Origin: Bacteroidales bacterium
GTDB lineage: Bacteria; Bacteroidota; Bacteroidia; Bacteroidales; F082
Direction of reading: 5' to 3'
Assembly (NCBI GenBank): GCA_045616045.1
Contig: JAZLGA010000026.1
Coordinates: 674 to 64,673 of the forward strand
DNA: 64,000 nt
Shown: piece by piece, positions 11,130 through 52,256 of the stretch
Position numbering within the stretch: position 1 is the stretch's first letter
How the letters are laid out: every line of letters begins with the position of its first letter
Position numbers and translations under genes: made by a program
The notes under the pieces: generated by a model
What the model was told of the DNA's origin: nothing
Seen by the model: the letters and a program-made list of their open reading frames with translations, nothing else
Database searches by the model: none

Positions 11130-11143
11130 AATGGCACGTAACA

Positions 11144-11175
11144 GCAAGAATGACTGCTTAGGCAGTCATTCTTGC
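11144..11175 (+). terminator. hairpin after the 10758-11129 gene
   Basis: Perfect 14-bp arms gcaagaatgactgc/gcagtcattcttgc with a ttag loop; weak T tract. Confidence 0.45.
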
Positions 11176-11211
11176 CATTTCATGAAAAACGCAATTTACA
11201 TTAACGACACA

Positions 11212-21747: not shown

Positions 21748-22410
21748 TCATCGAATAGTGTCTGACCCGCCAACAGTCTTCCCCTCACAAGTCATAATAC
21801 GAACATACCAGTAGGCACCATCCTCATTGTAACCTTTGGCACCCCCGACATAAAGCAAGCCATCATCGCTTTCTTCAATGCAATCTCCATCTGAAAGAAA
21901 CATCAACTTGTCTTTTTTCAAGTCGTAGTACAAGACATTGAGGTAAGTATAAGTGTGGGGATCGTTGATTATAAACACCTTGGTGCCATCCTTGCTGAAT
22001 TTTGCATTTTGAATGTCATTGCCATAGTAAAATTCAGACTTGTCGTCCACCTTGGTATTGATTATCTTAGTAGTATTGGTAATCTTGTCAAACAAGAAAA
22101 GGGTGTTGTGAAAATCGAACATCTCATCTTCCGTGTCGCCTTCTTTGTTGAAAGCCCTGTCTTCGTCAGTGTATGACACATATAGTATCTTGGTGCCATC
22201 AGGCGACATGTCCATAAACAAAGAATCGGCATCAGTCGTCAGCGTTTCAACAGCCTCGTCATCGTATGTTTGAACGGAATTTACCTTTGCGACATCCTGC
22301 TCCACAGCAACATCTTCTTGAGCATTTGTTGTTGGTGCAGAAGAGTTGTTGTCACATGCTACGAGGGCCAAAGCCAATGCAACAATATTGAAAAACAAGT
22401 TCTTTTTCAT
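21748..22410 (-). CDS. lipoprotein, unknown function
   Basis: Lipoprotein signal LALALVACDNN; DGTKILYVS / DGTKVFIIN repeats suggest beta-propeller-like blades. Confidence 0.55.
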   Translation of the reverse strand: MKKNLFFNIVALALALVACDNNSSAPTTNAQEDVAVEQDVAKVNSVQTYDDEAVETLTTDADSLFMDMSPDGTKILYVSYTDEDRAFNKEGDTEDEMFDFHNTLFLFDKITNTTKIINTKVDDKSEFYYGNDIQNAKFSKDGTKVFIINDPHTYTYLNVLYYDLKKDKLMFLSDGDCIEESDDGLLYVGGAKGYNEDGAYWYVRIMTCEGKTVGGSDTIR

Positions 22411-29015: not shown

Positions 29016-31250
29016 TTATCTGGGATTTTCGTATATATCCAACCGACGCGATGCAATAACCATACTTACGTCAACAACATTGTAATTATACGGTATTGTC
29101 TCTTTGAGTGCAAGTTCTTGCATAATATTTTCAATGGTGGCTATACGGGCATGTCGCTTATTGGCATGGTCTTTTATGATCTTCCCATTCTCATCGGTTG
29201 CCTTCTGGGCTGGTATGTAGCCAAGCATCTCCATCATTGCCTTCCACCTCAGGAATTCACATTTAGCCAAGTTTTTCAGCATCGTCTTCTCGACTTCGGT
29301 AGCAATAGGATAATCACAAAATTCGTCAACAACCTTGCTGCGTTCTTCGGGAGTTTTTGCTTTTTCAAGACAATCCTTATATTCAGACATTGACCTGCGG
29401 CTCAACAAGCACTCCAAAATACGATTAAGTTTCTCCTTGTCGACATCTACACCTGCAAGACGTTTCTTTGTCGCAATATGGAACCAATTTGACATATTTT
29501 GGTTAAGCACACATGCCAGTTCCTGATGTTGGGCATAGGTTGAGCTAAGCCTAAGGTACTGTCCAACCAAATCCTCGTTGTGTTTGGTGTATTTGACATA
29601 ATTCTCATAAAACGACTTTGCATCGTTTATGATGTGCTGTTCGACAACGCTGTTGTATGAGAATATCTTCTTCCTACTGCCAAACACCATTATCTCAATG
29701 TTTGAATCACTATTGTATTTGTTGTAATAATTGGCAATGTCATGGAGTTCGTTTTCATTCTCTATGGAATATGAACGCACAAATATCTTGAGTTTCCCTG
29801 CTGTTGCATCTCTTCTGCGACAAGCGATCCTATAGATATTGTTGGTCAGGTTGATATTGTCGGTGTCATTACCGCTACACACTACTATATAGTTAAGGTA
29901 GTTTGAACCCAAAGACAACCATTTCTTGAACGAAGACGTGTTTATGCTGTCATCAACCAGGACGACTTCTTCGCTATTCCTCAAGGCCGGGTACTTCATC
30001 AGGAACTGGTTCTTTGCCTCAAGAGTCTTTTCAGTAGTTATGAAAATCTTGGTTGGGTTTTTATTTCCGTCGCCATCAACAAACGAAGAATACTCATACA
30101 AATATTTCATAGCTTCCTCGCCTGTCTCGTCAAAACCTATCACCAACGCCTTGAAAGGTTCTTCAACTGTTGCTGTATTGGGATTGACTCTCAAGCAACT
30201 AACAGGATGGAAATCGGGATTACTTTTTAGTTCCACAACGGCAAGCCTTGCCGAATCGACAATGTTAAAACCTATATTGTTTTTTTTAGACATTCGTTTC
30301 GAAAAAGATGTGTAACTGTATGTCACACACAACTCGTTATAAATACTGTGACAATATACATCAATATGTTTTTTCAATATCGGGCTGTTGGCATTTTCCG
30401 TTGTCGAAATGAGAGCGGCGGCATTTTTTAAATTATTTTCATAATTATCGGACAAGAAAAACATTACCACTTCCTTGACATTGTCACGTATAATGGCCTT
30501 ATAGAGGAAATCGATACCAGACTCGTGGAAGATGCTCTTCAATGACATACCATCCTTTCGGCTCAATATTGCATCGCGGCTATTGACAAGCAAAGCATTG
30601 AGAGATCTTATCTTATCAACCTTTTCGTTTTTTACCAATGTGCCACTAAAGAAGTGAGTAAGCTGAACTTTCTCGCCCTCTTCCTCAAAAGGGAGCTCTA
30701 CAAAAACCACCTTATAATCGTTACCATGATGCGACTTCTTTATATCTTCTGCAAGAAGCAAAGAGTTGTTGTCCTGTCCCCAGAAGACAAAGAGTTTCGA
30801 TTTCTTCACCCTTTTCAATGAGTATTTTGACTGCAAAATATACGCAATCAAGGGTATTATGAAGACGGCACTTATAAAAACGGCAAGGAAATGTGTCATA
30901 GCAAAAAACATCATGTAAATGCCATTCTCATGCATACTGTGTCTGACCTCGACAAGGTCGGAATGCGAAACAAACATCTCAATCGACGATATCATGGATC
31001 TTAGCAGCAGAGTAATGATATTGCCAGAGGAGCCGCCTTCCCAAAAGCCTATAAAATAAAGTACTATACCAGACAAGAACACGATACTGGCTATCCATTT
31101 GATATGTTTTTCAATATATTTGTTTAGTTTGTGCTTATTAACCAAACTGAACATAAGCACTGTCAACAATATAGCGACAACCGAAAACAGCAATCGTGAA
31201 CTGACATCATTGAATATATCGGGGGGCACTGTCAAAAGGGTTTTCATCAA
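29016..31250 (-). CDS. 744-aa membrane-anchored protein with two TrkA-N/RCK-like Rossmann segments; function unknown
   Basis: 4-5 N-terminal TM helices without a TVGYG filter; KLFVFWGQDNNSLLLAEDI and FKALVIGFDETGEEA...YIVVCSGNDTDNINL resemble TrkA-N folds; C-terminus CEFLRWKAMMEMLGY... faintly RyR-domain-like. Confidence 0.7.
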   Translation of the reverse strand: MMKTLLTVPPDIFNDVSSRLLFSVVAILLTVLMFSLVNKHKLNKYIEKHIKWIASIVFLSGIVLYFIGFWEGGSSGNIITLLLRSMISSIEMFVSHSDLVEVRHSMHENGIYMMFFAMTHFLAVFISAVFIIPLIAYILQSKYSLKRVKKSKLFVFWGQDNNSLLLAEDIKKSHHGNDYKVVFVELPFEEEGEKVQLTHFFSGTLVKNEKVDKIRSLNALLVNSRDAILSRKDGMSLKSIFHESGIDFLYKAIIRDNVKEVVMFFLSDNYENNLKNAAALISTTENANSPILKKHIDVYCHSIYNELCVTYSYTSFSKRMSKKNNIGFNIVDSARLAVVELKSNPDFHPVSCLRVNPNTATVEEPFKALVIGFDETGEEAMKYLYEYSSFVDGDGNKNPTKIFITTEKTLEAKNQFLMKYPALRNSEEVVLVDDSINTSSFKKWLSLGSNYLNYIVVCSGNDTDNINLTNNIYRIACRRRDATAGKLKIFVRSYSIENENELHDIANYYNKYNSDSNIEIMVFGSRKKIFSYNSVVEQHIINDAKSFYENYVKYTKHNEDLVGQYLRLSSTYAQHQELACVLNQNMSNWFHIATKKRLAGVDVDKEKLNRILECLLSRRSMSEYKDCLEKAKTPEERSKVVDEFCDYPIATEVEKTMLKNLAKCEFLRWKAMMEMLGYIPAQKATDENGKIIKDHANKRHARIATIENIMQELALKETIPYNYNVVDVSMVIASRRLDIYENPR

Positions 31251-31879: not shown

Positions 31880-31986
31880 CACGCAGCGGCATCTATCTCA
31901 CCATGATTACGACCTACGGCTTCGCCAATAGCATTTATAATGAGACCGTGCCCGTGAAGTTAGGAATGGATTGTTTGTTTGGATGA
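31880..31986 (+). pseudogene. 3'-terminal remnant of a DUF234-type ATPase gene
   Basis: Near-identical to 35492-35598; encodes ...RSGIYLTMITTYGFANSIYNETVPVKLGMDCLFG*; no gene body upstream. Confidence 0.7.
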
Positions 31987-32033
31987 AGGCATTGGTTTTC
32001 CAATTGAATCCAAGAATATCATCAAAAACCGCT

Positions 32034-32078
32034 ATAATCAGCCATAAGTCCGATTTTTTTTGAGTTATGGCTGATTAT
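32034..32078. repeat. 45-nt palindromic element, copy 1
   Basis: ataatcagccataa-N17-ttatggctgattat, perfect 14-bp arms; followed by a second ATPase-tail piece (32083-32119); copies at 36161 and 37677. Confidence 0.7.
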
Positions 32079-32124
32079 GCCCAAAAGCATTTATAATGAA
32101 ACCGTGCCAGTGAAGCTGACAAAT

Positions 32125-33126
32125 TCAATTGTTATAGATGTCTTCAATGATTTGCCAGCCGACGCTTAATCCAAAATGATTAGGATCAGAGAAATTATAG
32201 CAATCTTCGGTCAGTTCATTTTTCCCTGAATAATCAAAAACATACTGCCCCCCAAAAATATCTTGCAGGGTCTTTAAATCCTGTTTGTTGATAGCAGGAT
32301 GTGTGTAGCAATATGCTGGCGTAACAATGATTCTATAATCTGTACCATGCTTCGTGAAAACGGCCTTGATATGTAATAGCTGTTCTTTAAAAGTGTCGTT
32401 AATAAGAACAGTGCTTTCTTTTAAATCAGCATCTGTTTTTGTCGCAATTTCCCTTAAAAAAGTACTTCTTACTAATTTACTGCAATTTGATAGACTATCT
32501 TTCAGTGGCTGAATGTTTATATCGACTGATGAATTGGTATCATACCAATCGTTACTTATAGTGTCGAATCCGATATAAGGTTTCGAATTTCTTATTCTTC
32601 CTTTCACGCTTGAATACCAAAATGACGGTTTCTGTAAAAAATTCCAAAACAATGTTGCTTGATATGCTATTTTAGGTTGCCCGGAAAACTTGTAATTCTT
32701 TATTGATAGAGCTTCTGTTGGAAGTTGCTTATTTGAAAAGGTTCCTGGTATATCAAGCAAGAGAATAACATTTGAGATGTCACTGTTCATTTGGTCTATA
32801 TATGTAACTTTTTGCTCGATTCCAGTAAGTGTTTCCCCCCAAGCTTGAAACAAGAATTGTCGTGATTTGTCAGGTAGATATTTAAGCCATTGATATGTAT
32901 TAATTCCACAACCTCTCGAACTACCGAAAATATATGAATCATACTTATATGTTGGATAGTTCTTCAAAAATAATTCTGATGACAGATAATCTCTGTTTGT
33001 AGCATCAAAAAAGTGCAGCGAAAAAGGCTTTAATGTTTTGAATGGATCGGTAAAAAAATACACTCCGAGTAGAATGGTAACGGGTATAAATGTAATCAAT
33101 ATTATTGTAATCAGAAACTTTTTCAT
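32125..33126 (-). CDS. SGNH/DltD-like periplasmic partner of MBOAT (module A)
   Basis: Start set to MKKFLITIILITF (ATG 1 nt after the MBOAT stop); one TM helix; YIFGSSRG (block I-like) and SDPNHFGLSVG (block V-like); AT-rich. Confidence 0.6.
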   Translation of the reverse strand: MKKFLITIILITFIPVTILLGVYFFTDPFKTLKPFSLHFFDATNRDYLSSELFLKNYPTYKYDSYIFGSSRGCGINTYQWLKYLPDKSRQFLFQAWGETLTGIEQKVTYIDQMNSDISNVILLLDIPGTFSNKQLPTEALSIKNYKFSGQPKIAYQATLFWNFLQKPSFWYSSVKGRIRNSKPYIGFDTISNDWYDTNSSVDINIQPLKDSLSNCSKLVRSTFLREIATKTDADLKESTVLINDTFKEQLLHIKAVFTKHGTDYRIIVTPAYCYTHPAINKQDLKTLQDIFGGQYVFDYSGKNELTEDCYNFSDPNHFGLSVGWQIIEDIYNN

Positions 33127-33127
33127 A

Positions 33128-34565
33128 TCAAAATTGGAAATAGATAAAAGATTGACTATGAGCGGCAAATTGAAGCATGACTATGATGACGACATAACAA
33201 ACAGCTATTTTGAGCCAAACAGGTGTCTTTTTGCTGAATTGGAGCGCAAAATCATTGACTCTTGAAAACCATTCTACAATTAACATGATAAGGATGAAAA
33301 ACAACGTCCTTTTCAATCCTACTATTAGTATTGGAGATGATAAAAGGGATGGATTAAATATTCCGCAAACATATTCCCAGGCCTGCCCGATATTTTCGGC
33401 CCTAAAGATAATCCAGCCAATGACGGCAAGGAAAAATGTCAGCAACATCTGCCACGCTTCCTTGAAAGTGGGCAAGACGCGTCCTGCCGCTACAATGTCA
33501 GTGTGCTTGCGGTTCTTGCCAAGCAGAATGAGCGGCAGGAAAAGAATCGCATGATAGGCACCCCAGGCAATGAAAGTCCAGTTGGCGCCATGCCAGAAGC
33601 CGCTCAGCAGGAAAATGACGAAAGTGTTGCGAATCACCTTGGCCTTCGAGCAGCGGCTGCCGCCCAACGGAATATAGACATAATCGCGGAACCAGGTCGT
33701 GAGCGAAATGTGCCACCTGCGCCAAAACTCGGCAATATCGCGGCTGAAATACGGCACGTTGAAATTTCGCATCAGCCTGATACCAAAAAGTTTTGCTGTG
33801 CCAATGGCGATGTCGGAATAACCCGAAAAGTCGCCGTAAATCTGGAAAGTGAACAAGATGGCAGCCAAAAGCAATGTGCTGCCGCTTTGGTTTTGATAAG
33901 TGTTGAAAACCTGATCGACATAAACGGCGCAATTGTCCGCCACCACGATTTTCTTGAACAAGCCCCAAAGGATTTGCCTCATGCCATCGACGGCTTCATT
34001 GTAGTCGAATTTTCTTGGTTTCTCAAATTGCGGCAAGAGGTTTGTGGCTCTTTCGATAGGACCCGCCACCAATTGCGGGAAGAAGCTCACGAAAGCGAAA
34101 AACTGCACAATGTCGTGTGTCGCCTTCAGCTTGCCACGATAGACATCAATACTGTAGCTCAAGGCTTGAAAAGTGTAAAAGCTAATGCCGACAGGCAGAA
34201 TGATTTTCAGCAGCAAGCCATCGGTCTTGCCGTCAAGGAATAAGTTGGCAAAGGAGGTGACGAAAAAGTCATAATACTTGAAAACGCCTAAAAATCAACA
34301 GGTTGAGGACAATGTTCAAGACGTTGATGGTCTTTGCCTTTTTCGGCGTTTCGCGGTATTTTTCAATCAGCAGGCCGCTTCCCCAACTGCAAAAGGAGGT
34401 GAAAGCGATGAGGAACAGAAAGCGCCAGTCCCACCAGCCGTAAAAAACGTAGGAAACGACGACTATGAAAAAGTTCTGCAGCTTCAGGTTCCGATTGAAA
34501 ACGAACCAATATAGCAGAAACACTATGGGCAAAAATATTGCAAATTCTATGGAGTTAAACAACAT
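33128..34565 (-). pseudogene. MBOAT family O-acyltransferase, module A, disrupted by a +1 frameshift
   Basis: ORFs 34269-34565 and 33128-34216 together align along the intact paralog 38743-40176; A5 run at 34290-34294 versus A4 in the paralog; conserved WHISLTTWFRDYVYIPLGG MBOAT His motif. Confidence 0.85.
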
Positions 34566-34629
34566 GATTGATAGTTTTCAGCATCACTACCAATCGCTTT
34601 ATTAACAGAAACAAGGTGTAGGCCTCCTT

Positions 34630-34809
34630 ATTCGCGTTCACGGGAAGCCTAGGAGAAACCCATCATACAAGCTAAGTCAGCCCACACCTAATCGGTGCGA
34701 GCATTAACATTACGCTTGTATGGACTGGAAAACTTCATCGGCTTTCCGCGAACTTTATTTTCATCCGTTAAAGAAATCAGTTTCCTAGGCTTTTTTCTTT
34801 TGAACGCGA
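34630..34809. other. candidate structured RNA / leader element
   Basis: 10-bp outer helix ttcgcgttca/tgaacgcgaa extended by aagcctagga/tcctaggctt; inner helix atacaagc/gcttgtat; alternative 13/14 pairing of 34635-34648 with 34739-34752. Confidence 0.3.
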
Positions 34810-34911
34810 AATAATAGCTAATGCTTTAGTTTATTATTATGTATCTATTTTCTTTGTCCTTTTCTGTGATTATTTATTGTTATGCTGCAAAAATAGGCAT
34901 TTTTCCTATAG

Positions 34912-35598
34912 GTGAATGAAAAATCCTTAATCTGTTATAAAAAAATCGTCAAATTACTGGCCGACAATAAAAAAGGACTAACCCGCTCAGAAATATCATC
35001 ACGATTATCCATCAGCGGCAGCACCTTAACCACCATGCTTGACAACTTGAAGAACTGCGAGTTTATCCAACTATATTACATGCGTGACAAAAAAGTGAAA
35101 AGCACAGGCGGCATCTACAAACTGACCGATTTCTACACTATGTTTTACCTTAACTTCGTGCCGAAAGCAAAAACAGAAAGCAACTTCTGGAGCAACCACA
35201 TCAACACCCCCGAAGTCAACAACTGGTTTGGTCTGGCCTACGAAAGCATTTGCCTCACCCACGTCCAACAAATCAAAGAGGCATTACATCTGGACAGCAT
35301 ATCAACGAAATGCTACGCCTGGAGAAGCAAGACCTCAGCGCCCGGTGCCCAAATTGACCTCATCATCGACCGCGCTGACAACATGATCAACCTATGCGAA
35401 ATCAAGTACTCGAAAGACGAATACAAAATCACGCAAGAGGACGACAGGCTGTTGAGAAACCGCATGACCGCTTTCCAAAACGAAACCAGCACACGCAGCG
35501 GCATCTATCTCACCATGATTACGACCTACGGCTTCGCCAGCAGCATTTATAATGAGACCGTGCCGGTGAAGTTAGGAATGGATTGTCTGTTTGGGTGA
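34912..35598 (+). pseudogene. truncated DUF234-type ATPase paralog (wHTH + C-terminal domain only)
   Basis: Aligns with residues about 250-473 of the intact 36247-37668 product; lacks the Walker A N-terminal half; non-ATG start, no promoter box. Confidence 0.6.
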
Positions 35599-35643
35599 AT
35601 GTTTTAGTTTCCTAAATCAGTATCTTTATACTTGCACCTAGCA

Positions 35644-35838
35644 TTAAATTTCTATTCCGGCTTGCTTTACGATAGACATAAACGTCCCTTTTTTCAAATC
35701 CTTACCATTATGAAAAGGGACGACAATTGTCTTGTTTGAAATCGAATTATAATAGACCTGGTGAGAGCCTTTCGCCCTTTTAAACACGAAACCGTTTTCT
35801 TCAAGAAGCCTTATCAGATAATCAGGGCTTAGATTCAT
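35644..35838 (-). CDS. hicA: type II toxin HicA
   Basis: 64 aa; LIRLLEENGFVFKRAKGSHQVYYN...VVPFHNGKDLKKGTFMSIVKQAGI fits the HicA fold signature. Confidence 0.85.
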   Translation of the reverse strand: MNLSPDYLIRLLEENGFVFKRAKGSHQVYYNSISNKTIVVPFHNGKDLKKGTFMSIVKQAGIEI

Positions 35839-36056
35839 ATAGCAAAATTCAAGGAATACTCCAACATATTACTATCATCAGGCACCATTTCGCCATGATC
35901 CTGCAATTCCTCGACATACAACTCTATAGCTTCCTTTGCCATTTCTATGGCTTCATCAACAGTCTCTCCGTATGTTATGCAACCTGGTAGCGCAGGAACC
36001 AGAACCGTATAGCCGCCGTCCTCTTCTTTTCGCAAATTTATCCTGTAAGTACGCAT
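35835..36056 (-). CDS. hicB: type II antitoxin HicB
   Basis: 73 aa; EEDGGYTVLVPALPGCITYGETVDEAIEMAKEAIELYVE is a typical HicB/UPF0150 sequence; 4-nt overlap with hicA. Confidence 0.85.
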   Translation of the reverse strand: MRTYRINLRKEEDGGYTVLVPALPGCITYGETVDEAIEMAKEAIELYVEELQDHGEMVPDDSNMLEYSLNFAI

Positions 36057-36160
36057 CTGAAACTAATTTTGTGCAAAACTACACATTTTTCCGAAAAAAG
36101 GAAACTCCTATTGCCACATTTCTTTAGCAATTTTAACCATCGGGGTTCTCCCAAAACGAT

Positions 36161-36205
36161 AAAAACAGCCATAAGTCCGATTTTTTCTGAGTTATGGCTG
36201 ATTAT
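36161..36205. repeat. 45-nt palindromic element, copy 2 (degenerate left arm)
   Basis: aaaaacagccataa-N17-ttatggctgattat, upstream of the intact ATPase gene. Confidence 0.6.
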
Positions 36206-36219
36206 AGCATGTTTTTATT

Positions 36220-36227
36220 TATTTTTG
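36220..36227 (+). promoter_or_regulatory. Bacteroidetes -7 box TAttTTTG
   Basis: 19 nt upstream of the ATG at 36247. Confidence 0.45.
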
Positions 36228-36246
36228 CCACATAATAATCAAAGAA

Positions 36247-37668
36247 ATGAAAGAGGACATCATCGGACGAAAAAAGGAAATCGCAGAACTGGAACGGCTT
36301 TACCAATCCAACAAATCTGAATTCATTGCCGTTTACGGACGGCGAAGAGTTGGAAAGACTTTCCTGATAAAGCAACTGTTTGAAAAAGAGCTGGTCTTTT
36401 CTGTAACCGGACTGGCTAACCAGAACACTTCCAAACAGCTCAAGAATTTCCATAACACGCTGAAAATGTATGGCAAAACCAAAAGCACCGCGCCAAAAGA
36501 CTGGATTGATGCTTTTGACCTTCTCATACAATACCTACAGACGATTGATGGTCGAAAAGCCATACTGATTGATGAACTTCCATGGATGGATACGCCCCGC
36601 TCTGGATTCATAGCCGCACTTGAACATTTCTGGAACGGATGGGCGTCAATGCGAAAAGACATTATGTTAATCGTCTGTGGTTCAGCTTCTTCATGGATTA
36701 TGGACAAACTCATCAACAGCCACGGAGGGCTGCACAACCGTATCACAAAAAGAATTCTGCTCAAGCCCTTCAATTTAGCGGAAACCGAAGAAATGCTTCA
36801 AAGCATAGGCATGGATCTTTCACGATACGAAGTGGCTGAAACATACATGATTATGGGTGGTATTCCTTTCTATCTCAGCATGTTCAACCCTGCCATGAGC
36901 CTCAGCCAGAACATCGACGCTTTGTTCTTCAACGAAGACCGCAGCCTCAGCAACGAATTTGAAAACCTATACGCTTCGTTGTTCAGGAATTCCGACAACT
37001 ACATTAAAGTCGTAACGGCATTGAGCAAGGTCAGGAACGGAATGACACGCGAGGAAATCGAAAAAGAGAGCGGCATTGAGACAGGAGGCACTCTGTCGAA
37101 AATCCTTAGCAATCTGGAGGCCTGCGGTTTCATCCGAAAATACAACAATATCGGCAAAGACAGCCGCAAGAAATACTATCAGCTGATGGACTTCTTCACC
37201 TTGTTCTACTTCCATTTCATAAACGGCAACGACAAGAGGAACGGCTTTTGGTCGGCAATACAAGGCACTTCGACATTCTATGCTTGGGCAGGAATTTCGT
37301 TTGAAATGATGGCACTGCTACATGTCGGCCAAATCAAACAAAAGTTAGGTATCAGCGGCATTTTGACTGAAGAATTTGCATGGCGGAAAGAAAACAGCGG
37401 AACAGCACGAGGCGCACAAATCGACTTGGTGATACACCGAAGCGATAAAACAGTGAATCTGTGCGAAATGAAATTCTCCGAAGACACCTACACAATTGAT
37501 TACGAAGAAAATCTGAAACTCCGCAACCGATTGACAGCATTCAAAACAGCTTTCGGCAAGCCATGTAACTCCGTGCAATTGACCTTTATAACAACTTTCG
37601 GCCTGACAAAAGGCAAACACTCAGGAATCGCACAAAACGAAGTCATCTTAGACGACTTGTTTGCATAA
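36247..37668 (+). CDS. ATP-binding protein (AAA ATPase with wHTH and DUF234-like C-terminal domain)
   Basis: Walker A YGRRRVGKTFL, Walker B AILIDELPWM; C-terminal GAQIDLVIHRSDKTVNLCEMKFS resembles a PD-(D/E)XK-like core. Confidence 0.8.
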   Translation: MKEDIIGRKKEIAELERLYQSNKSEFIAVYGRRRVGKTFLIKQLFEKELVFSVTGLANQNTSKQLKNFHNTLKMYGKTKSTAPKDWIDAFDLLIQYLQTIDGRKAILIDELPWMDTPRSGFIAALEHFWNGWASMRKDIMLIVCGSASSWIMDKLINSHGGLHNRITKRILLKPFNLAETEEMLQSIGMDLSRYEVAETYMIMGGIPFYLSMFNPAMSLSQNIDALFFNEDRSLSNEFENLYASLFRNSDNYIKVVTALSKVRNGMTREEIEKESGIETGGTLSKILSNLEACGFIRKYNNIGKDSRKKYYQLMDFFTLFYFHFINGNDKRNGFWSAIQGTSTFYAWAGISFEMMALLHVGQIKQKLGISGILTEEFAWRKENSGTARGAQIDLVIHRSDKTVNLCEMKFSEDTYTIDYEENLKLRNRLTAFKTAFGKPCNSVQLTFITTFGLTKGKHSGIAQNEVILDDLFA

Positions 37669-37676
37669 AAACCGCC

Positions 37677-37720
37677 ATAACCAGCCATAAGTCCGAATTT
37701 TCCGAGTTATGGCTGATTAT
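37677..37720. repeat. 45-nt palindromic element, copy 3
   Basis: ataaccagccataa-N16-ttatggctgattat, 9 nt after the ATPase stop. Confidence 0.7.
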
Positions 37721-37724
37721 GGCC

Positions 37725-37784
37725 AAAAGCATTTATAATGAGACCGTGCCAGTGAAGCTGAATATGGATTGTTTGTTTGGGTGA
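37725..37784 (+). pseudogene. orphan 3' tail of another DUF234-type ATPase paralog
   Basis: Encodes KSIYNETVPVKLNMDCLFG*, matching the tails at 31940-31986 and 35540-35598 rather than the adjacent intact gene. Confidence 0.6.
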
Positions 37785-37789
37785 AAATG

Positions 37790-38740
37790 CTAGTTCAATA
37801 ATTGAAGCGAATCCAGTTTTCTTGCAAAATCAAATGTAAACTTGTCAGTTCCTTCTGGATTTAGATGGACTGAAACACAAAAATTGGAAGTGTCGTTACA
37901 CAAATCATAGTCTTTTGTGTAGTTTAAGTATAGGAAGCCATATTTTTCTACAATGTCAGAGAAATATGAATTTAGCTCTTCCATGTTTTCAACTTTGGCA
38001 GTCGTAACTGAATAGACAGGAGAATTAACCAAAACGACGAATACATTATTTTGTTTGCAGTCGGCTAAAAAGTCTTCAAACAATTTTACAGACCTTTCAT
38101 CGAAGGAACCTTTTATGGTTTTTAATTTTGCAGCTTCCGTTCCATCCCATGTTCCTTTTTCAGGGCTGAATCCTTTGTATGTTGGTCTGTCAACGAAATG
38201 CTTTAAATGTAAAAATTCAAGCAAACCATTCTTGATAACCATTTGGTAGCCGTTATATCTGTAAAGTGGACAATATAATTCCAAAAATCCATAGCCGAGT
38301 TTTCTTAATTCTTTTCTCATGGTCTTGTCGTAAACAGCTGGGAAAAACCGCTGTGAATCATGTTGATGACGAATATCATCCATGAAACCTAAAGTACCAA
38401 AACTCATTTCTTGAATAATAACTTTTGGCAAAGTATTGTGCTTTTTATAGCACTCATATTCTGCAATTTGAACATTAAATGGACATCCTCCAAGTCCGAT
38501 GTCATAGGAATCGGCATTACATACAGAATCGATGATAGCTGTATTGAAGTGAGAAAAACCTCTTGAATTTCCCATAATCAACACATTGTGATTCATATCG
38601 CCTTTCATTATTTGGTTAAATACTTCGAACCTATAACAGTCTGTCTTTCTCAAACCAGAACTAATCATCACATCTAAAAATACAGACAATAGAAGTAATA
38701 TAATGGCAAATATTATGGTTTTCTTGATGAACTTTTTCAT
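37790..38740 (-). CDS. SGNH/DltD-like periplasmic partner of MBOAT (module B)
   Basis: One TM helix; VLIMGNSRG (block I-like) and VSVHLNPEG (block V-like); ATG 2 nt after the MBOAT stop; little visible identity to the module A partner. Confidence 0.6.
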   Translation of the reverse strand: MKKFIKKTIIFAIILLLLSVFLDVMISSGLRKTDCYRFEVFNQIMKGDMNHNVLIMGNSRGFSHFNTAIIDSVCNADSYDIGLGGCPFNVQIAEYECYKKHNTLPKVIIQEMSFGTLGFMDDIRHQHDSQRFFPAVYDKTMRKELRKLGYGFLELYCPLYRYNGYQMVIKNGLLEFLHLKHFVDRPTYKGFSPEKGTWDGTEAAKLKTIKGSFDERSVKLFEDFLADCKQNNVFVVLVNSPVYSVTTAKVENMEELNSYFSDIVEKYGFLYLNYTKDYDLCNDTSNFCVSVHLNPEGTDKFTFDFARKLDSLQLLN

Positions 38741-38742
38741 AG

Positions 38743-40176
38743 TTAAAATTGAAAATAGATGAAATTGACGGTATTACCTCCAAATGCGAACAACCAGAAT
38801 AATGTGGCAAAATAGAATCCATATCGAATGATTGGAGATTTTATGTACGATAAGTCGAAAGAATGTTGTTTTTCTCTTTGAATCCATTCGATAATTATCA
38901 GTATGATAATGTTTAATAATAATGCTGTTATACCAGATGTGTTAGGTCTTGAAAACAAACTATTATCACAAATTCCGCAAACATACTCCCAAGCCTGGCC
39001 AATGCTTTCAGCCCTGAAGATAATCCATCCGATGACAGCGAGGAAAAATGTCAGCAGCATCTGCCCAGCTTCCTTGAAAGTAGGCAGGACACGCCCAGCC
39101 GCCACAATGTCGGTGTGCTTGCGGTTCTTGCCAAGCAGAATGAGCGGCAGGAACAGAACCGCATGATAGGCTCCCCATGCAATGAAAGTCCAGTTGGCGC
39201 CATGCCAGAAACCGCTCAGCAGGAAAATGACGAAAGTGTTGCGAATCACCTTGGCCTTCGAGCAGCGGCTGCCGCCCAACGGAATATAGACGTAATCGCG
39301 GAACCAAGTCGTGAGCGAGATGTGCCACCTGCGCCAGAACTCGGCAATGTCGCGGCTGAAATACGGCACATTGAAATTGCGCATCAGCCTGATGCCAAAC
39401 AGTTTTGCCGTACCAATGGCGATGTCGGAATAACCCGAAAAGTCGCCGTAAATCTGGAAAGTGAACAGGATGGCAGCCAAAAGCAATGTGCTGCCGCTTT
39501 GGTCTTGATAGGTGTTGAAAACCTGATCGACATAAACGGCGCAATTGTCAGCCACCACGATTTTCTTGAACAAGCCCCAAAGGATTTGCCTCATGCCATC
39601 GACGGCTTCGTTATAGTCGAATTTCCTTGGTTTCTCAAATTGCGGCAAGAGGTTCGTGGCTCGCTCGATGGGGCCAGCCACCAATTGAGGAAAGAAACTT
39701 ACAAAAGCGAAAAACTGCACAATATCATGCGTTGCCTTCAGCTTGCCACGATAGACATCAATACTGTAGCTCAAGGCTTGGAAAGTGTAGAAACTGATGC
39801 CGACAGGCAAAATGATTTTCAGCAGCAGACCATCGGTCTTGCCATCGAGGAACAGGTTGGCAAAAGATGTAACGAAGAAATCGTAATACTTGAAAACGCC
39901 TAAAATCAGCAGGTTGAGGACAATGTTCAAGACGTTGATGGTCTTTGCCTTTTTCGGCGTTTCGCGGTATTTTTCAATCAGCAAACCGCTTCCCCAACTG
40001 CAAAAGGAGGTGAAAGCGATGAGGAACAAAAAACGCCAGTCCCACCAGCCGTAGAAGATGTAGGAAACGACGACGATGAACAGGTTCTGCAACTTCAGGT
40101 TCTTCTTGAACGCGAACCAATAGAGCAAAAACACTATGGGCAGAAATACTGCAAATTCTATGGAGTTGAATAACAT
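38743..40176 (-). CDS. MBOAT family O-acyltransferase (AlgI/DltB-like), module B, intact
   Basis: 477 aa, polytopic; FWRRWHISLTTWFRDYVYIPLGG with the conserved His; FLLSGFWHGANW. Confidence 0.85.
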   Translation of the reverse strand: MLFNSIEFAVFLPIVFLLYWFAFKKNLKLQNLFIVVVSYIFYGWWDWRFLFLIAFTSFCSWGSGLLIEKYRETPKKAKTINVLNIVLNLLILGVFKYYDFFVTSFANLFLDGKTDGLLLKIILPVGISFYTFQALSYSIDVYRGKLKATHDIVQFFAFVSFFPQLVAGPIERATNLLPQFEKPRKFDYNEAVDGMRQILWGLFKKIVVADNCAVYVDQVFNTYQDQSGSTLLLAAILFTFQIYGDFSGYSDIAIGTAKLFGIRLMRNFNVPYFSRDIAEFWRRWHISLTTWFRDYVYIPLGGSRCSKAKVIRNTFVIFLLSGFWHGANWTFIAWGAYHAVLFLPLILLGKNRKHTDIVAAGRVLPTFKEAGQMLLTFFLAVIGWIIFRAESIGQAWEYVCGICDNSLFSRPNTSGITALLLNIIILIIIEWIQREKQHSFDLSYIKSPIIRYGFYFATLFWLFAFGGNTVNFIYFQF

Positions 40177-41072: not shown

Positions 41073-42422
41073 ATGAAACGCAAGGTTTACAGCAAGTTAC
41101 TCGATTGGAAGCAAAGAAGAAAGGGCGAAGTGGCCATTTTGATTGACGGTCCACGATGTGTTGGGAAAAGTTACATTGCCCAGACATTTGGACAAAACGA
41201 ATACAAATCCTACATTATAATCGATTTCAGCGATGACAATCCTCAAGTAAGGCAGATTTTCGACAAATACCTGAACGACTTGGACATGCTGTTTTCTTCC
41301 CTTTAGCTGCATTACCATACCACGCTTTACCAAAGAGAATCACTCATCATCTTCGATGAGATACAGTTTTATCCTAAAGCAAGAGCCTCCATCAAGCGTT
41401 TGGTTGCCGACCGAAGATACGACTACATTGAAACCGGCTCATTGGTCAGTATCAACAAGAATGTCAAGGACATACTGATTCCGTCCGAAGAACATCACAT
41501 TGACATGAACCCGATGGATTTTGAGGAATTCCTTTGGGCAATGGGTAACGAAATGCTAATGCCGCATATTAAGGAATGTTTTGAAAAAAAGCAAGTCTTG
41601 GGGCCTATCCATCGTCAAGCCATGGAATATTTCAGGCAGTACCTCATTGTTGGCGGTATGCCGCAAGCCGTACTGAAATATGCGGAAAACCGAAATTTCA
41701 TGGAAGTGGACGAGGTGAAACGCGAAATCCTGAAACTATACAGAGCCGACATCAGCAAATATGCTACTGGGTACGAAAGCAAAGTCACAAGCATTTTCGA
41801 CAAAATCCCGGCGGCATTACAGCGTCATGAAAAGAAATTCCATTTGTCCGACATCAAATCGACAGCCAGATTCCGCGATTATGAAAGCTCGTTTTTCTGG
41901 CTACAGGAATCAAGAGTCGTCAACATTTGCCATGCTGCCACGGAACCAGGCGTTGGACTAAGAATGAAAATGGACGGAATGTCACTAAAATGCTACATGG
42001 CCGATACAGGATTGCTCATTTCCCATGCTTTCGACGAAAACGGCATCGTGCAAGAAGACATTTACCAGAAACTCCTATTAGACAAACTGGAAGTAAACAA
42101 AGGCATGTTGGTCGAAAACATCGTAGCACAAATGCTGCACGCATCCGAGCATCAACTTTATTTCTTCTCAAATTATTCACTGACAGACAGAGACGAAAGA
42201 ATGGAAATCGATTTTCTCATTCGCAAAAGCACCATTACATCACGGCACAACATTTCACCCATCGAAGTCAAATCGGGCAATGGTTACAGTTTGTCATCGC
42301 TGACTAAATACATTAAGAAGTATGGCGAGCAATTGTCAACGCCATACGTTTTACACTCTTCCGACTTGTTTGAGAAAGATGGCATCTGCTACCTGCCACT
42401 TTACATGACACCTTTGCTGTAA
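41073..42422 (+). pseudogene. AAA_14 / DUF4143-type ATPase interrupted by one in-frame TAG
   Basis: ORFs 41073-41306 and 41400-42422 are in the same frame; the only interruption is TAG at 41304-41306; Walker A IDGPRCVGKSYI, Walker B LIIFDEIQ just after the stop. Confidence 0.75.
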
Positions 42423-49874: not shown

Positions 49875-52256
49875 GTGAAAAAGATATTTGTTATTTTCTT
49901 GCTCATAATGGTGCTGTTCAAACTGTCAACGGCTCAGAATGGCTTGTTTGTCAATGATTTTGAACAAAAAGACAGCTTTGGGCCATGGACCAAAGTCATA
50001 GCCAGATACGATACCTCAGCATACAACGGCAATTTCGTCTGTCGCGTAGAAGCATCCCATGAATACGGTTTTGGCGTATCCATTCGTACAACAGACAACC
50101 TTAAACGACAGAATCTGAACATATCATTCGAGGCCGCTTATCGTTTCAATGACTCTGACCCTGACGCATCTGTTGTGATGAGTGTTGACAATAGTTCCAT
50201 AAATTGTTACTGGAATAAATACCCCATATCGGGAGGAAAGAAAGGCGAATGGTTTAAAAGTGGCTTCAATACGATGATTCCAGCCGATTATATGCCTGAA
50301 GGTACGGTGATTAAGATTTATGTATTGAATCATCAGGGGCAGGAGATAGATATTGACGACGCCAGAGTGGAGATAGAGACTGCTCCAATGCCACGTTTTC
50401 TGCCAAAGCACCAAAACACATTGCCTCTTGGAAATGGTAAAGCCGTCGTGCAAAACTCTAATTATGGAGTTTCGTATTTCCCCCGTAATAAGGCCCTGAC
50501 AATAACCAATGCCAACAGCATTCCGCTTACCAAAGGTATATACACGGTGACGGAAGCTATAATAGCTTCTGATACCATGACATTTATAGGCGACAAATGG
50601 GTTAAGGGCAGCGATGGGACTTGGATATGCAGAACACCTGTTGGCTTGACAAAAGTCAAATTTGTTGAGGCCAGCCCCAACCAGCTTTCCATTGCTGCTG
50701 AAAATGCCTACAACTTCGACATGCTCATTGCAAGACAGGCTCTTGTTGTGCCTTTTAATGCTGACGAAATGGAAGTTTATCGAACTAATTGTTTGACCGA
50801 TACAATTTTCTTTCAAGATTGTTATTATCTGGCCGATAAAGGTTTCACCATCGGCAAGGGCGAAAACAGTATCAGTACTTGCCACAATAGTTCGGTCGGC
50901 TCAATTCAATTTGACGCAGTTAATCGCACTGCCTATTTCAATGCTGACTATTGGCGAGACCATCCTTTAATACACTATCCTCTTGACGACGATACCTTGA
51001 ATTATTTTGTTGACATTTCCTGTCGGCAAGTTGGTGCAGAAAGTGTTATAAAGTCGAATTTTGACTTGTTTATAGGCATTGACTCAAAATGTCTTCCCGT
51101 TTTTATGCCAACTTTCGGTGGATATGATGCTGCCATAATCTTTACTGAGCATGCCGACTGGACTGACATACGTACTCAACGAGCCGTGCTTTTTGGCAAC
51201 GAAAATATTAAAAGTGCCGACAGCGCCGTAGGTGGTTTTGTCTATTACAATGTGCCTGTCACAAAAAGTGTTTTTTATAACAATCCTGAAGGTATTACAA
51301 ATGAGGGGCGAAGCGAAGGGGTCTTTGTCAGCGAACAGGCTACACTTATGGGAAAAGATGAGTTCCTGAAGACCATAGAACAGTTACATGAACTGGGATT
51401 TGACATCTGTTTGCATACTCCAGAACAGAACACTACATGCGGCAACAACATGGACGAAGCTCTTGATTTCATGCAAAGGCATTTCAACTCTGTGTGTTGG
51501 ATTGACCATGGCTACAACAACACCTCACAACACAATAGGGAGAACCTTTTGTGCGACGCCTTGCTTCCCGATGGCGGATGCTATTCGTTGCCACTATGGA
51601 ATAAATACGGCATACGATATCTGTGGAATGCGTATTATGAGGAGAATCCTATGCCGCAATATGATTTTGACTGCAACTTTAAGCAACCCTACCCTGGATA
51701 TGGCGATGCCTTGCCTAGACCTCAAGTGACAACATTGCCCAATGGCGACACAACGCTGCTGTTGTGGTCAACATCTTCTACGTTTGAAACAAATAGCGAC
51801 AGTGGATGGGACTATTTCTTCTCGCGTGAACGTCTTGAGAGGCTGTCTCTTAATCATGATGTGCATATCACGCATGTTTATCCTGCTTGGGTGCTTCAGG
51901 AAAGGTCGTGTTGGGAATATGTTGCCGACAGTGTCATTACTGCAAGAAAAGGATTCAACAGAGCACTTGCACGCATAAGCGAATTGCGAACGGAGTGCCG
52001 CCTAAATGCCATAACAATAGCAGAGCATCTCCGATATGTTGAGGCTGTTGGCAAAATCAAATATGGGTTAGTAGATAGAAACCATGTCACACTATTCAAT
52101 TCTGGAAATGACGTAAAAGGTGTGTCATTGCTGTTTGCCGAGACACCTGACTTTGGTGGCAAGGAGATAGAGACACGCAACACTATCGATGGTTCCGTCG
52201 TGGTATGGTTTGATATGTATAAAAATGAGACAATAACAATAAAATACAGAAAATGA
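49875..52256 (+). CDS. 793-aa secreted protein, unknown function
   Basis: Signal peptide MKKIFVIFLLIMVLFKLSTAQ (GTG start); IIFTEHADW and ICLHTPEQ are only vaguely reminiscent of NodB-type deacetylase motifs. Confidence 0.65.
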   Translation: MKKIFVIFLLIMVLFKLSTAQNGLFVNDFEQKDSFGPWTKVIARYDTSAYNGNFVCRVEASHEYGFGVSIRTTDNLKRQNLNISFEAAYRFNDSDPDASVVMSVDNSSINCYWNKYPISGGKKGEWFKSGFNTMIPADYMPEGTVIKIYVLNHQGQEIDIDDARVEIETAPMPRFLPKHQNTLPLGNGKAVVQNSNYGVSYFPRNKALTITNANSIPLTKGIYTVTEAIIASDTMTFIGDKWVKGSDGTWICRTPVGLTKVKFVEASPNQLSIAAENAYNFDMLIARQALVVPFNADEMEVYRTNCLTDTIFFQDCYYLADKGFTIGKGENSISTCHNSSVGSIQFDAVNRTAYFNADYWRDHPLIHYPLDDDTLNYFVDISCRQVGAESVIKSNFDLFIGIDSKCLPVFMPTFGGYDAAIIFTEHADWTDIRTQRAVLFGNENIKSADSAVGGFVYYNVPVTKSVFYNNPEGITNEGRSEGVFVSEQATLMGKDEFLKTIEQLHELGFDICLHTPEQNTTCGNNMDEALDFMQRHFNSVCWIDHGYNNTSQHNRENLLCDALLPDGGCYSLPLWNKYGIRYLWNAYYEENPMPQYDFDCNFKQPYPGYGDALPRPQVTTLPNGDTTLLLWSTSSTFETNSDSGWDYFFSRERLERLSLNHDVHITHVYPAWVLQERSCWEYVADSVITARKGFNRALARISELRTECRLNAITIAEHLRYVEAVGKIKYGLVDRNHVTLFNSGNDVKGVSLLFAETPDFGGKEIETRNTIDGSVVVWFDMYKNETITIKYRK

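Follow-up and report, generated by a model that had tools for sequence, protein, structure and literature searches.

Pairs made up of an MBOAT (membrane-bound O-acyltransferase) with an SGNH-fold partner acylate bacterial envelope polymers, and the relay that links the two proteins through a tyrosine in a C-terminal hexapeptide has been worked out recently. PatA auto-acetylates the Tyr residue of its C-terminal FxYxxF hexapeptide, and the resulting acetyl-Tyr is the donor for PatB (Anderson et al., 10.1101/2024.09.17.613324; JBC 2025). MBOATs other than DltB carry this motif fused at their C terminus, whereas in the Dlt system it is found on the microprotein DltX (10.1101/2024.09.17.613324). 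In a model of PatAB, the transmembrane (TM) helix of the SGNH partner touches helix 1 and the last, motif-bearing helix of the MBOAT (10.1101/2024.09.17.613324), and an AlphaFold 3 (AF3) model of DltX with DltD has a TM-TM interface with the motif inside the DltD pocket (PMC13653941). Here we describe a locus of the bacterial MBOAT-SGNH kind in a 64,000 nt stretch of a Bacteroidales genome (contig JAZLGA010000026.1, positions 674 to 64,673; the whole stretch is called the window below). The window holds two tandem modules, A and B (WA and WB), each consisting of an MBOAT gene followed by a partner gene. We consider it likely that the locus is a polymorphic two-component acyltransferase with a constant core and an exchangeable cassette made up of tail and partner.

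Comparison of the two window modules

Coordinates are positions in the whole window (Table 1), and both MBOAT modules are on the minus strand. The first-pass annotation, made from the letters of this DNA, described two blocks that align end to end with about 90-95% nucleotide identity, differ by about 10 amino acids in about 400 codons through mostly synonymous changes, and lose their homology abruptly at ...QAWEYVCGI. These estimates were accurate. The cores (33362-34565 and 38974-40176) are 91.7% identical (1103/1203, one extra copy-A base removed), and their products differ at exactly 10 amino acids in 401 codons, with a synonymous divergence (dS) of 0.45, a nonsynonymous divergence (dN) of 0.011 and a dN/dS of 0.025. 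Identity in 60 nt intervals ranges from 0.82 to 1.00 up to nt 1200 and from 0.35 to 0.60 thereafter. A maximum-chi-square scan of the whole modules gives a single breakpoint at alignment column 1206 (33360 in A, 38972 in B), just past ...QAWEYVCG, and its chi-square value of 634 was reached by 0 of 300 permutations.

The MBOAT C termini and the partners had also been described as diverged and AT-richer than the shared block, which the composition of third codon positions bears out. The G+C content there (GC3, modules A/B) drops from 0.65/0.66 for the cores to 0.33/0.29 for the tails, and the partners have 0.30/0.33; the mean of the other window genes is about 0.50. As a speculation, these opposite deviations from the genome mean could fit GC-biased repair in a freely recombining core and AT drift in cassettes that find nothing to recombine with. 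BLASTP detects no similarity between partners A and B (E 1.7). The junction between MBOAT stop and partner ATG is kept in both modules, as first noted (TTTTGA-TATGAAAAAG versus TTTTAACTATGAAAAAG), and the partner ATG lies 2-3 nt past the MBOAT stop.

A history free of recombination would require one old duplication followed by slow change of the core and fast change of the tail and partner. Constraint does differ in this direction, the core being strongly purified (dN/dS 0.025) and the tail and partner looser (dN/dS 0.06-0.33). However, core dS is 0.45 while nucleotide similarity is undetectable past the breakpoint, GC3 jumps from 0.65 to 0.30 at that point, and cassettes of the same type in other genomes have a dS of only 0.8-1.0. 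Because synonymous sites and GC3 change abruptly at the breakpoint, the uniform ancient divergence named at first as an alternative is excluded, and we give a recombination-free history almost no credence.

The shared block carries the hallmarks of an acyltransferase. MBOAT B matches Pfam PF03062 with 112 bits (cutoff 27) over residues 148-363 and has Glu7, RRWHIS (282-287) and GFWHGANW (322-329), the latter two being present in both copies; the core of copy A is that of copy B except for the 10 residues and a frameshift described below. The core catalytic His aligns with the WHG motif of DltB. The DltB profile TIGR04091 covers residues 7-388 of MBOAT B with 176 bits, below its cutoff of 375, and the alignment with the DltB structure 6bug covers about residues 122-388, the 6bug chain ending near residue 400. 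Because of this correspondence, the 1.2-kb block is a complete DltB-like MBOAT body, with the breakpoint placed where DltB stops.

The tail that follows has two hydrophobic TM helices, a conserved EWxQRxKxH loop (EWIQRxKxH in B) and a C-terminal FIYFQF. F-x-Y-x-x-F is present in 162/162 family tails, with exact FIYFQF in 156 of them; a search of the PDB with the tail alone gave only chance matches to cytochrome b. The first-pass annotation had not recognized this shuttle motif, through which the boundary of the cassette makes sense mechanistically: the joint of the two relay modules would be the place where DltB ends and a DltX-like extension starts.

The partners (333 and 316 aa) had been described as having one TM helix, a G-[SN]-S-R-G block and a His block, with an SGNH-like fold. 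Structure prediction agrees with this description. The AlphaFold2 (AF2) models of partner B (pLDDT 96.2) and partner A (pLDDT 90.7) each have a long N-terminal helix (H2-26 or H2-30 in the A/B pair), and the best PDB match of both by Foldseek is DltD with probability 1.0 and E about 5e-5 (3bma, 7dxm and 6pfx for partner B; 3bma and 6o93 for partner A), which ranks above SGNH esterases. The SGNH block I Ser and block V His are present as GSSRG (68-72) and DPNH (314-317) in partner A, and in partner B as GNSRG (G57-N58-S59) and VSVH, the latter within VSVHLNPEG near the C terminus (His292 in full-length numbering).

Sequence searches place the partners less readily. Neither has a Pfam or NCBIfam match at E<=0.1, and neither qualifies for the DltD family PF04914; searches of the PDB with single partner sequences gave no match. 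They also fall outside the PatB family (DUF459), with no Pfam match and only weak structural matches to 7tlv and 8tlb (E 0.034 and 0.13). An iterated profile search from partner B recovered 68/76 open reading frames (ORFs) located 3' of related MBOATs, including partner A (E 2.6e-40), whereas hhalign of the narrow A and B partner families matched just the N-terminal 61 columns, at a probability of 84%. The homology of A and B is thus established by the iterated search over the 76 downstream ORFs, and direct comparison did not reveal it.

In an alignment of 63 divergent partners, the G-x-S and the C-terminal His (FxDxxHLNxxG consensus) are nearly invariant (at least 90%). A profile of this set matches DltD 6o93 (E 2.9e-5), AlgX (about 5e-4) and GDSL proteins in the PDB, and its members match the Pfam families DUF1574 (15/63), PF04914 (3/63), ALGX (2/63) and also GDSL_2; DUF1574 is an SGNH-clan family of no known function (Pfam). 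Judged by these models and profiles, the partners are membrane-anchored, SGNH-fold proteins distantly related to DltD. Partner A has D314-x-x-H317, but three residues before the His there is a Val in partner B and in the 52 homologues aligned with it. In the B-type family the motif reads V-S-V-H (residues 289-292, window about 37865-37876) in place of D-x-x-H. The active site of these partners may be a Ser-His dyad, or its Asp may come from another position, for instance the conserved D283. The SGNH block II Gly and block III Asn, which are oxyanion residues, were not recognizable in the partner sequences.

Tails and partners across related loci

Relatives of the locus (L-numbers denote related loci) in GTDB species-representative genomes are only 50-69% identical, the best reaching 69%. 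In 80 genome loci an ORF of 280-360 aa begins, nearly without exception, 0-20 nt past the MBOAT gene, and tandem modules recur; nearly all of these loci have the adjacent single-pass SGNH-fold partner of a PatAB-type relay. A closer set was obtained by a core-only search of a protein collection, which yielded MBOATs 83-100% identical to the core (proteins from this search carry P-numbers). One of them, P0121, is identical to MBOAT B.

With tail types defined at 55% single linkage and core identity thresholds measured against copy B, the 79 MBOATs with a core at least 83% identical in amino acid sequence fall into 20 tail types, and nine types are found among the 22 whose cores are at least 93% identical. 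Core identity is at least 95% in 274 pairs, and in 121 of these the tails are less than 45% identical. The A-type tail is also present on P0127, P0129, P0130, P0143-P0145 and L165. These are the further C-terminus and partner variants on the same 5' block that the exchange reading had led the first-pass annotation to anticipate.

DNA from the close loci L081-L083, L164-L170, L192 and L193 was compared with the window modules. In nine close modules, whose cores are 93-98% identical in amino acids and 84-92% in nucleotides, identity drops at one common position, past which the EWxQR loop and the final 20 nt form the only, small, conserved islands. The GC3 mosaic recurs in 10/10 close loci (core 0.60-0.66 versus tail and partner 0.23-0.41), and distant relatives such as L084 and L089 lack it. 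In related Bacteroidales of rumen and gut, many unrelated cassettes of tail and partner are thus attached to one core, always at the same codon.

One protein from the core search, P0155, is close to the window core only to about residue 285 and is diverged through the remaining core and the tail. Because of this divergence point, recombination junctions are not limited to codon 401.

Tails and partners vary together in these genomes. Only pairs of the same type share both, with tail/partner identities of 0.87/0.90 (WB-L164), 0.78/0.87 (WA-L165; dN/dS of the partners 0.083) and 0.59/0.69 (L081-L168). The pair L082-L168 shares 0.53 of the tail, in the first helix only, and 0.16 of the partner, and all other pairs are at or below 0.42/0.34. 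L168 and L169 are recombinants that combine the first tail helix of one type with the last helix and partner of another, the second crossover lying at the EWxQR loop. The Mantel correlation with the partner rises from the core (r 0.27) through the first tail helix (0.58) to the last tail helix (0.69). An apparent case of one tail with two different partners (L001/L004) was rejected, as the downstream ORF of L004 encodes a radical-SAM protein and not a partner.

An exchangeable cassette of tail and partner on a constant core, as first proposed, is supported by these results. Two further statements are of a weaker kind: we infer that the cassette sets acylation specificity and that the tail must match its partner. 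The latter has a rival in which the partner gene is the unit of exchange, the tail is swapped merely by lying between the conserved core and the partner, and any tail fits any partner. The sole functional element of the tail, FIYFQF, is after all invariant, being identical in 156/162 tails; partner association declines with distance from the partner in the manner just given; the first tail helix was exchanged independently in L168 and L169; and a free acetylated hexapeptide suffices as PatB donor in vitro (10.1101/2024.09.17.613324). Set against these points are published AF-Multimer and AF3 models that pack the SGNH TM helix against the last, motif-bearing helix, the persistence of the last helix with its partner in both recombinants found, and the finding that, among the loci examined, no complete tail clearly occurs beside unrelated members of the partner family. 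We regard exchange of the tail by linkage alone as less likely than not, but as a possibility to be taken seriously.

Several points weigh against a polymorphic acyltransferase with matched cassettes. The co-variation of tail and partner is explained equally well by their physical linkage, and the gradient of association from core to first helix to last helix is expected from linkage alone as well. TM-scores of the partner models to DltD are modest (0.43-0.46), so that the relation must be distant, and partner B has Val instead of the canonical D-x-x-H Asp. No glycan biosynthesis genes were seen nearby among the window genes scanned. The frameshift in copy A means that two modules are not two working systems in this genome. 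Finally, the sequences analysed are metagenome-assembled genomes.

The last point raises the prospect that strain variants were stitched in tandem or cores joined to foreign cassettes during assembly, since a conserved 1.2-kb core can mislead assemblers. However, identity between the copies is no more than 92%, and 4.2 kb of unique sequence separates them. The same combinations of core and cassette are also found in independent sources (L166 in ENA and NCBI, L167 in Logan, and the WB type in four assemblies), and tandem arrays are present in unrelated assemblies, including Flavobacterium isolate genomes (L050). An assembly artefact is thus very improbable as the origin of the locus.

Head-to-tail arrays of two or three modules were observed in rumen metagenomes (L088, L094, L084, L091 and L093) and in Flavobacterium (L050 and L056). 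Modules on the rumen contigs are about 0.8-1.1 kb apart, which is the length of one partner gene, with cores 75-96% identical in amino acids and partners 17-22% identical. L094 has a core identity of 93% in nucleotides with tail and partner identities of 33% and 17%, and L088 has three modules.

Movement, genomic context and decay

The window modules were compared with L164, L083 or L081 to gauge divergence. The housekeeping genes MoxR and SurA are saturated at synonymous sites in these comparisons, with a proportion of synonymous differences (pS) of 0.79-0.85, while the core has a dS of only 0.47-0.73. The ATPase_2 gene at 36247-37668 has a dS of 0.24 and 93% nucleotide identity to L083 and L166. 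Tails and partners of the same type have a dS of 0.8-1.0 and a dN/dS of 0.06-0.10, indicating purifying selection. Because the core is far less diverged than the saturated flanking housekeeping genes, and because the chromosomal surroundings of the B-type module differ between the window, L164, L170 and L192, the module moves horizontally between distantly related Bacteroidales. A 4.3-kb BLAST match of 87% to L081 that seemed to reach the MoxR gene was discarded as over-extended (MoxR pS 0.785). A phage origin was likewise rejected, as the MBOATs found in IMG/VR and among GenBank phages are all distant (53-64% at most).

The pair of modules could instead have arisen inside one lineage by an ancient tandem duplication with later gene conversion of the 5' 1.2 kb, and no cassette need then have passed between genomes. 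The copies are indeed only 5.6 kb apart in direct orientation, their 92% core identity equals the highest value in the matrix, and other genomes too have tandem modules whose cores resemble each other. Intragenomic conversion is nevertheless argued against because the WA-WB value of 0.92 is not above those between genomes (0.92 for L083-L165, and 0.88-0.91 to the window copies), and we rejected it on this ground. The closest cassettes are found in genomes with a single module (L165 for WA; L164, L170 and L192 for WB), the housekeeping genes of those genomes are synonymously saturated, and a dS of 0.45 between the copies speaks against recent conversion. We consider duplication with conversion improbable and retain exchange of cassettes between genomes.

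Conserved sequence brackets the cassette on both sides. Past the partner stop, WA, WB, L081, L082, L083 and L166 all have a hairpin and what is left of the 3' end of an ATPase gene, and in several of these loci a full ATPase_2 gene, 93% identical to the window copy, comes next; the segment 37813-36153 is 93.5% identical to L083. Because the core provides a 5' arm and the ATPase remnant, hairpin and ATPase gene a 3' arm, the cassette of about 1.1-1.25 kb is exchanged by homologous recombination in these conserved arms.

The hairpin of about 53 nt (CAGCCATAA...TTATGGCTG) was seen in three copies beside ATPase gene ends (32026-32078, 36153-36205 and 37669-37721) and also in L081, L083 and L166. 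Such a hairpin could terminate transcription from both sides, or it could be a small repeat element.

Reading in the direction of the modules, the locus begins with a DUF4143 ATPase with a nonsense codon, MBOAT B, partner B, a remnant with hairpin, and the ATPase_2 gene. It continues with half of an ATPase_2 gene, a 250 nt leader, the frameshifted MBOAT A, partner A, a remnant with hairpin, and an ATPase_2 remnant. The modules have the same orientation, their spacing of 5.6 kb including 4.2 kb of unique sequence.

Table 1. Features of the two-module acyltransferase locus in the window
Feature	Coordinates	Strand	Basis or remark
MBOAT B conserved core, codons 1-401	38974..40176	-	PF03062; 91.7% nucleotide identity to copy A
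MBOAT B variable tail, 76 aa + stop	38743..38973	-	Identity to copy A collapses; GC3 0.29
Partner B, 316 aa, N-terminal TM helix + predicted DltD-like SGNH-fold domain	37790..38740	-	AF2, Foldseek
MBOAT A conserved core with +1 frameshift	33362..34565	-	Alignment to copy B
MBOAT A frameshift site, T5 run versus T4 in copy B	34290..34294	-	Alignment to copy B
MBOAT A variable tail, 77 aa + stop, A-type, C-terminal FIYFQF	33128..33361	-	
Partner A, 333 aa, TM helix + predicted DltD-like SGNH-fold domain, ORF intact	32125..33126	-	AF2, Foldseek
Module B right flank: hairpin 37669-37721 + ATPase-gene 3'-end remnant	37669..37787	.	Repeat families D3, D5, D6
Module A right flank: hairpin 32026-32078 + truncated ATPase 3' remnant	32026..32119	.	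D4, D5, D6
ATPase_2/DUF234-type ATPase, convergent with partner B, right arm of locus	36247..37668	+	Pfam PF01637
Second ATPase_2 gene, C-terminal half only	34912..35598	+	Pfam DUF234 + HTH matches only
Conserved structured leader 5' of MBOAT A	34575..34830	-	
AAA_14/DUF4143 ATPase 5' of module B, in-frame TAA at codon 78 (41304-41306)	41073..42422	+	

Direct repeats derived from the 3' end of the ATPase gene lie on both sides of module A. The D6 repeat at its flank is 94% identical to 37698-37761, and a further ATPase remnant at 31880-32003 shares the D4 repeat with the half ATPase_2 gene. This half gene is 84.5% identical to L082 3794-4453 and is a remnant marking the joint of the stacked modules. 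The region upstream of module B is of the L081/L192 type, and the leader of module A is the one that precedes single modules in L082, L083, L164, L166 and L170. The genome thus stacks two alleles, one of B type and one of A type, and the simplest reading is that recombination in the ATPase sequences brought in the second allele next to the first, which was not replaced.

Two tandem modules had been reported, with block lengths of 1205 and 1204 nt. Both modules are present and the difference in length is correct, but the first-pass annotation missed that the extra nucleotide causes a +1 frameshift in copy A. The T-run of copy A (34290-34294) has an extra T (TTGATTTTTAGG versus CTGATTTTAGG in copy B; the frameshift-site sequences of MBOAT A and B are CAACCTGTTGATTTTTAGG and CAACCTGCTGATTTTAGG), and the frame shifts past codon 90, leaving two ORFs (34269-34565 and 33128-34216). 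Because the reading frame is split in two, MBOAT A is probably an inactive pseudogene, and this genome probably has one working module rather than the two that the tandem arrangement had implied.

The neighbouring DUF4143 ATPase (41073-42422) has TAA in place of Gln78 and is otherwise 94.7% identical in amino acids to intact 449-aa homologues in L083 and L081 (tblastn and translation), which makes it a second decayed gene of the island, inactivated by a nonsense codon. Because this is a nonsense substitution and not a homopolymer error, the frameshift in copy A is more likely, though not proven, to be real decay than a sequencing error.

The silent A module may conceivably be a stored allele, although we think this unlikely. 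If it were one, a single crossover between the 92%-identical cores 3' of the frameshift would delete 5.6 kb and create an intact MBOAT with the A-type tail and partner. The A-type cassette would then be under the module B promoter, and surface acylation would be switched in one step. The tandem arrays of Bacteroidota would by the same reasoning be reservoirs for recombinational switching of acylation specificity, with the last tail helix co-adapted to each partner, like silent pilin or orphan toxin-tip cassettes.

The ATPases that flank the modules resemble candidate defence genes. The ATPase_2 gene at 36247-37668 matches the PADLOC candidate defence family PDC-S27 over its full length (E 5.5e-197), the DUF4143 ATPase (41400-42422) matches PDC-S01 (E 4e-82), and relatives have HicAB and HTH_3 pairs at the same site. 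Because of these matches and pairs, the modules lie in a defence-island-like hotspot. The neighbouring candidate defence ATPases and the toxin-antitoxin genes of relatives fit the view that cassette diversity is maintained by selection on surface acylation, perhaps through phage or immune pressure.

The start of MBOAT A is separated from a Bacteroides-type -7 box (TATTTTTG) by a conserved leader of about 250 nt (34575-34830). It is also found in L082 (1113-1365), L083 (7740-7992), L164 (7742-7992), L166 (7095-7348), L170 (9739-9990), L165, L168 and L169, and weakly in L117, L096 and L002; it was not found upstream of module B or of L081. Its predicted structure has 49 pairs and is 94.9% paired; seven pairs are changed on both sides, whereas shuffles gave 2.8 +/- 1.2 and slid controls 0-3. 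No Rfam family matched when 28-44 kb, which includes the leader, was scanned. This conserved predicted structure makes the leader a candidate cis-regulatory RNA.

Directly 3' of module A is a 744-aa ORF (29016-31250, minus strand) with an N-terminal membrane region. It has no significant Pfam or NCBIfam family, weak matches to Acyl_transf_3 and to the N terminus of an EPS sugar transferase, and no PADLOC match. Three long ORFs located among housekeeping genes are without a Pfam match at the thresholds used: 11131-12753 (plus strand, 540 aa), 49875-52256 (plus strand, 793 aa) and 21748-22410 (minus strand, 220 aa).

Proposed relay and known systems

By analogy with the published PatAB and Dlt work, the two proteins would form an acyl relay that runs from acyl-CoA to His and Tyr, then to the partner Ser and finally to the acceptor. 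The shared body would hold the acyl-donor tunnel and the catalytic His, and it would move the acyl group, probably acetyl from acetyl-CoA, to the tail Tyr on the membrane's outer side. The partner would then take the group onto the Ser of its G-x-S block and place it on an extracytoplasmic acceptor. The same analogy suggests that the partner selects this acceptor.

The locus thereby suggests that the relay comprises a constant donor-side engine and a replaceable unit of shuttle helix and acceptor-side transferase. With at least nine cassettes on near-identical cores, it offers a natural set of chimeras as a tool for the role of the last helix and the choice of acceptor. It also directs attention to a large DltD-like family: the profile of B-type partners matches 5443 representatives of 50%-identity clusters at E<=1e-3, so that the family has thousands of such clusters, and some relatives of the window partners, which themselves have no Pfam or NCBIfam match, match DUF1574. 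The findings further suggest that strain-level variation of surface acylation, housed in defence-island-like hotspots, is common among Bacteroidales of gut and rumen, with a bearing on phage susceptibility and immune recognition.

We found no paper that describes cassette exchange of the shuttle tail and partner for an MBOAT. One of the closest described systems is PatA/PatB, which also has a separate MBOAT and a single-pass SGNH partner side by side. Glu7 and the catalytic His are kept, extra C-terminal helices end in FxYxxF (FIYANF in Neisseria gonorrhoeae PatA, FIYFQF in the window MBOATs), and the PatAB partner TM helix has been modelled against the last MBOAT helix. The window partners differ in being DltD-like and not of the PatB/DUF459 kind, no Ape-type esterase was seen nearby, and neither polymorphism nor exchangeable cassettes are known for PatAB.

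The individual parts resemble those of the Dlt system. The core aligns with DltB along its whole length, the best structural match of the partners is DltD, and the window tail is a fused counterpart of DltX, with a TM helix and a C-terminal Tyr motif. However, the score against the DltB equivalog model is below the cutoff, and dltA, dltC and dltX, for which no dedicated search was made, were not among the neighbours scanned against Pfam. The shuttle is fused to the MBOAT, an arrangement tied in the published scheme to an acyl-CoA donor and not to D-alanyl-DltC. Bacteroidota are not known to have teichoic acids.

The systems AlgI/AlgJ/AlgX, WssH/WssI and PatA1/PatB1, which O-acetylate exopolysaccharides and cell-wall polymers, follow the same logic of an MBOAT with an SGNH-clan partner, and some members of the partner superfamily match ALGX or DUF1574. 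They differ from the window locus in that partners A and B have no Pfam match and in that the locus lies outside a polymer biosynthesis operon.

The exchange itself has parallels elsewhere. In allelic replacement at O-antigen and capsule loci, and with the serotype-converting AT3-SGNH O-acetyltransferases OafA and Oac, variable AT-rich surface-modification genes are swapped by recombination within conserved flanks and O-acetylation varies between strains. The window locus differs in that one recombination arm lies inside the coding sequence of the enzyme, which yields chimeric proteins, and in that the enzyme is an MBOAT and not an AT3 protein. Polymorphic toxins (CdiA-CT/CdiI, Rhs) and phage tail-fibre tips with their chaperones have a constant N terminus, a sharp demarcation, a variable C terminus with a partner gene, and stacked copies nearby. 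This likeness is one of architecture alone, as an acyl relay is biochemically unrelated to toxin and immunity or to adhesin and chaperone. By these comparisons, the locus joins a DltB-like body, a DltX-like tail and a DltD-like partner in a system that would work like PatA/PatB.

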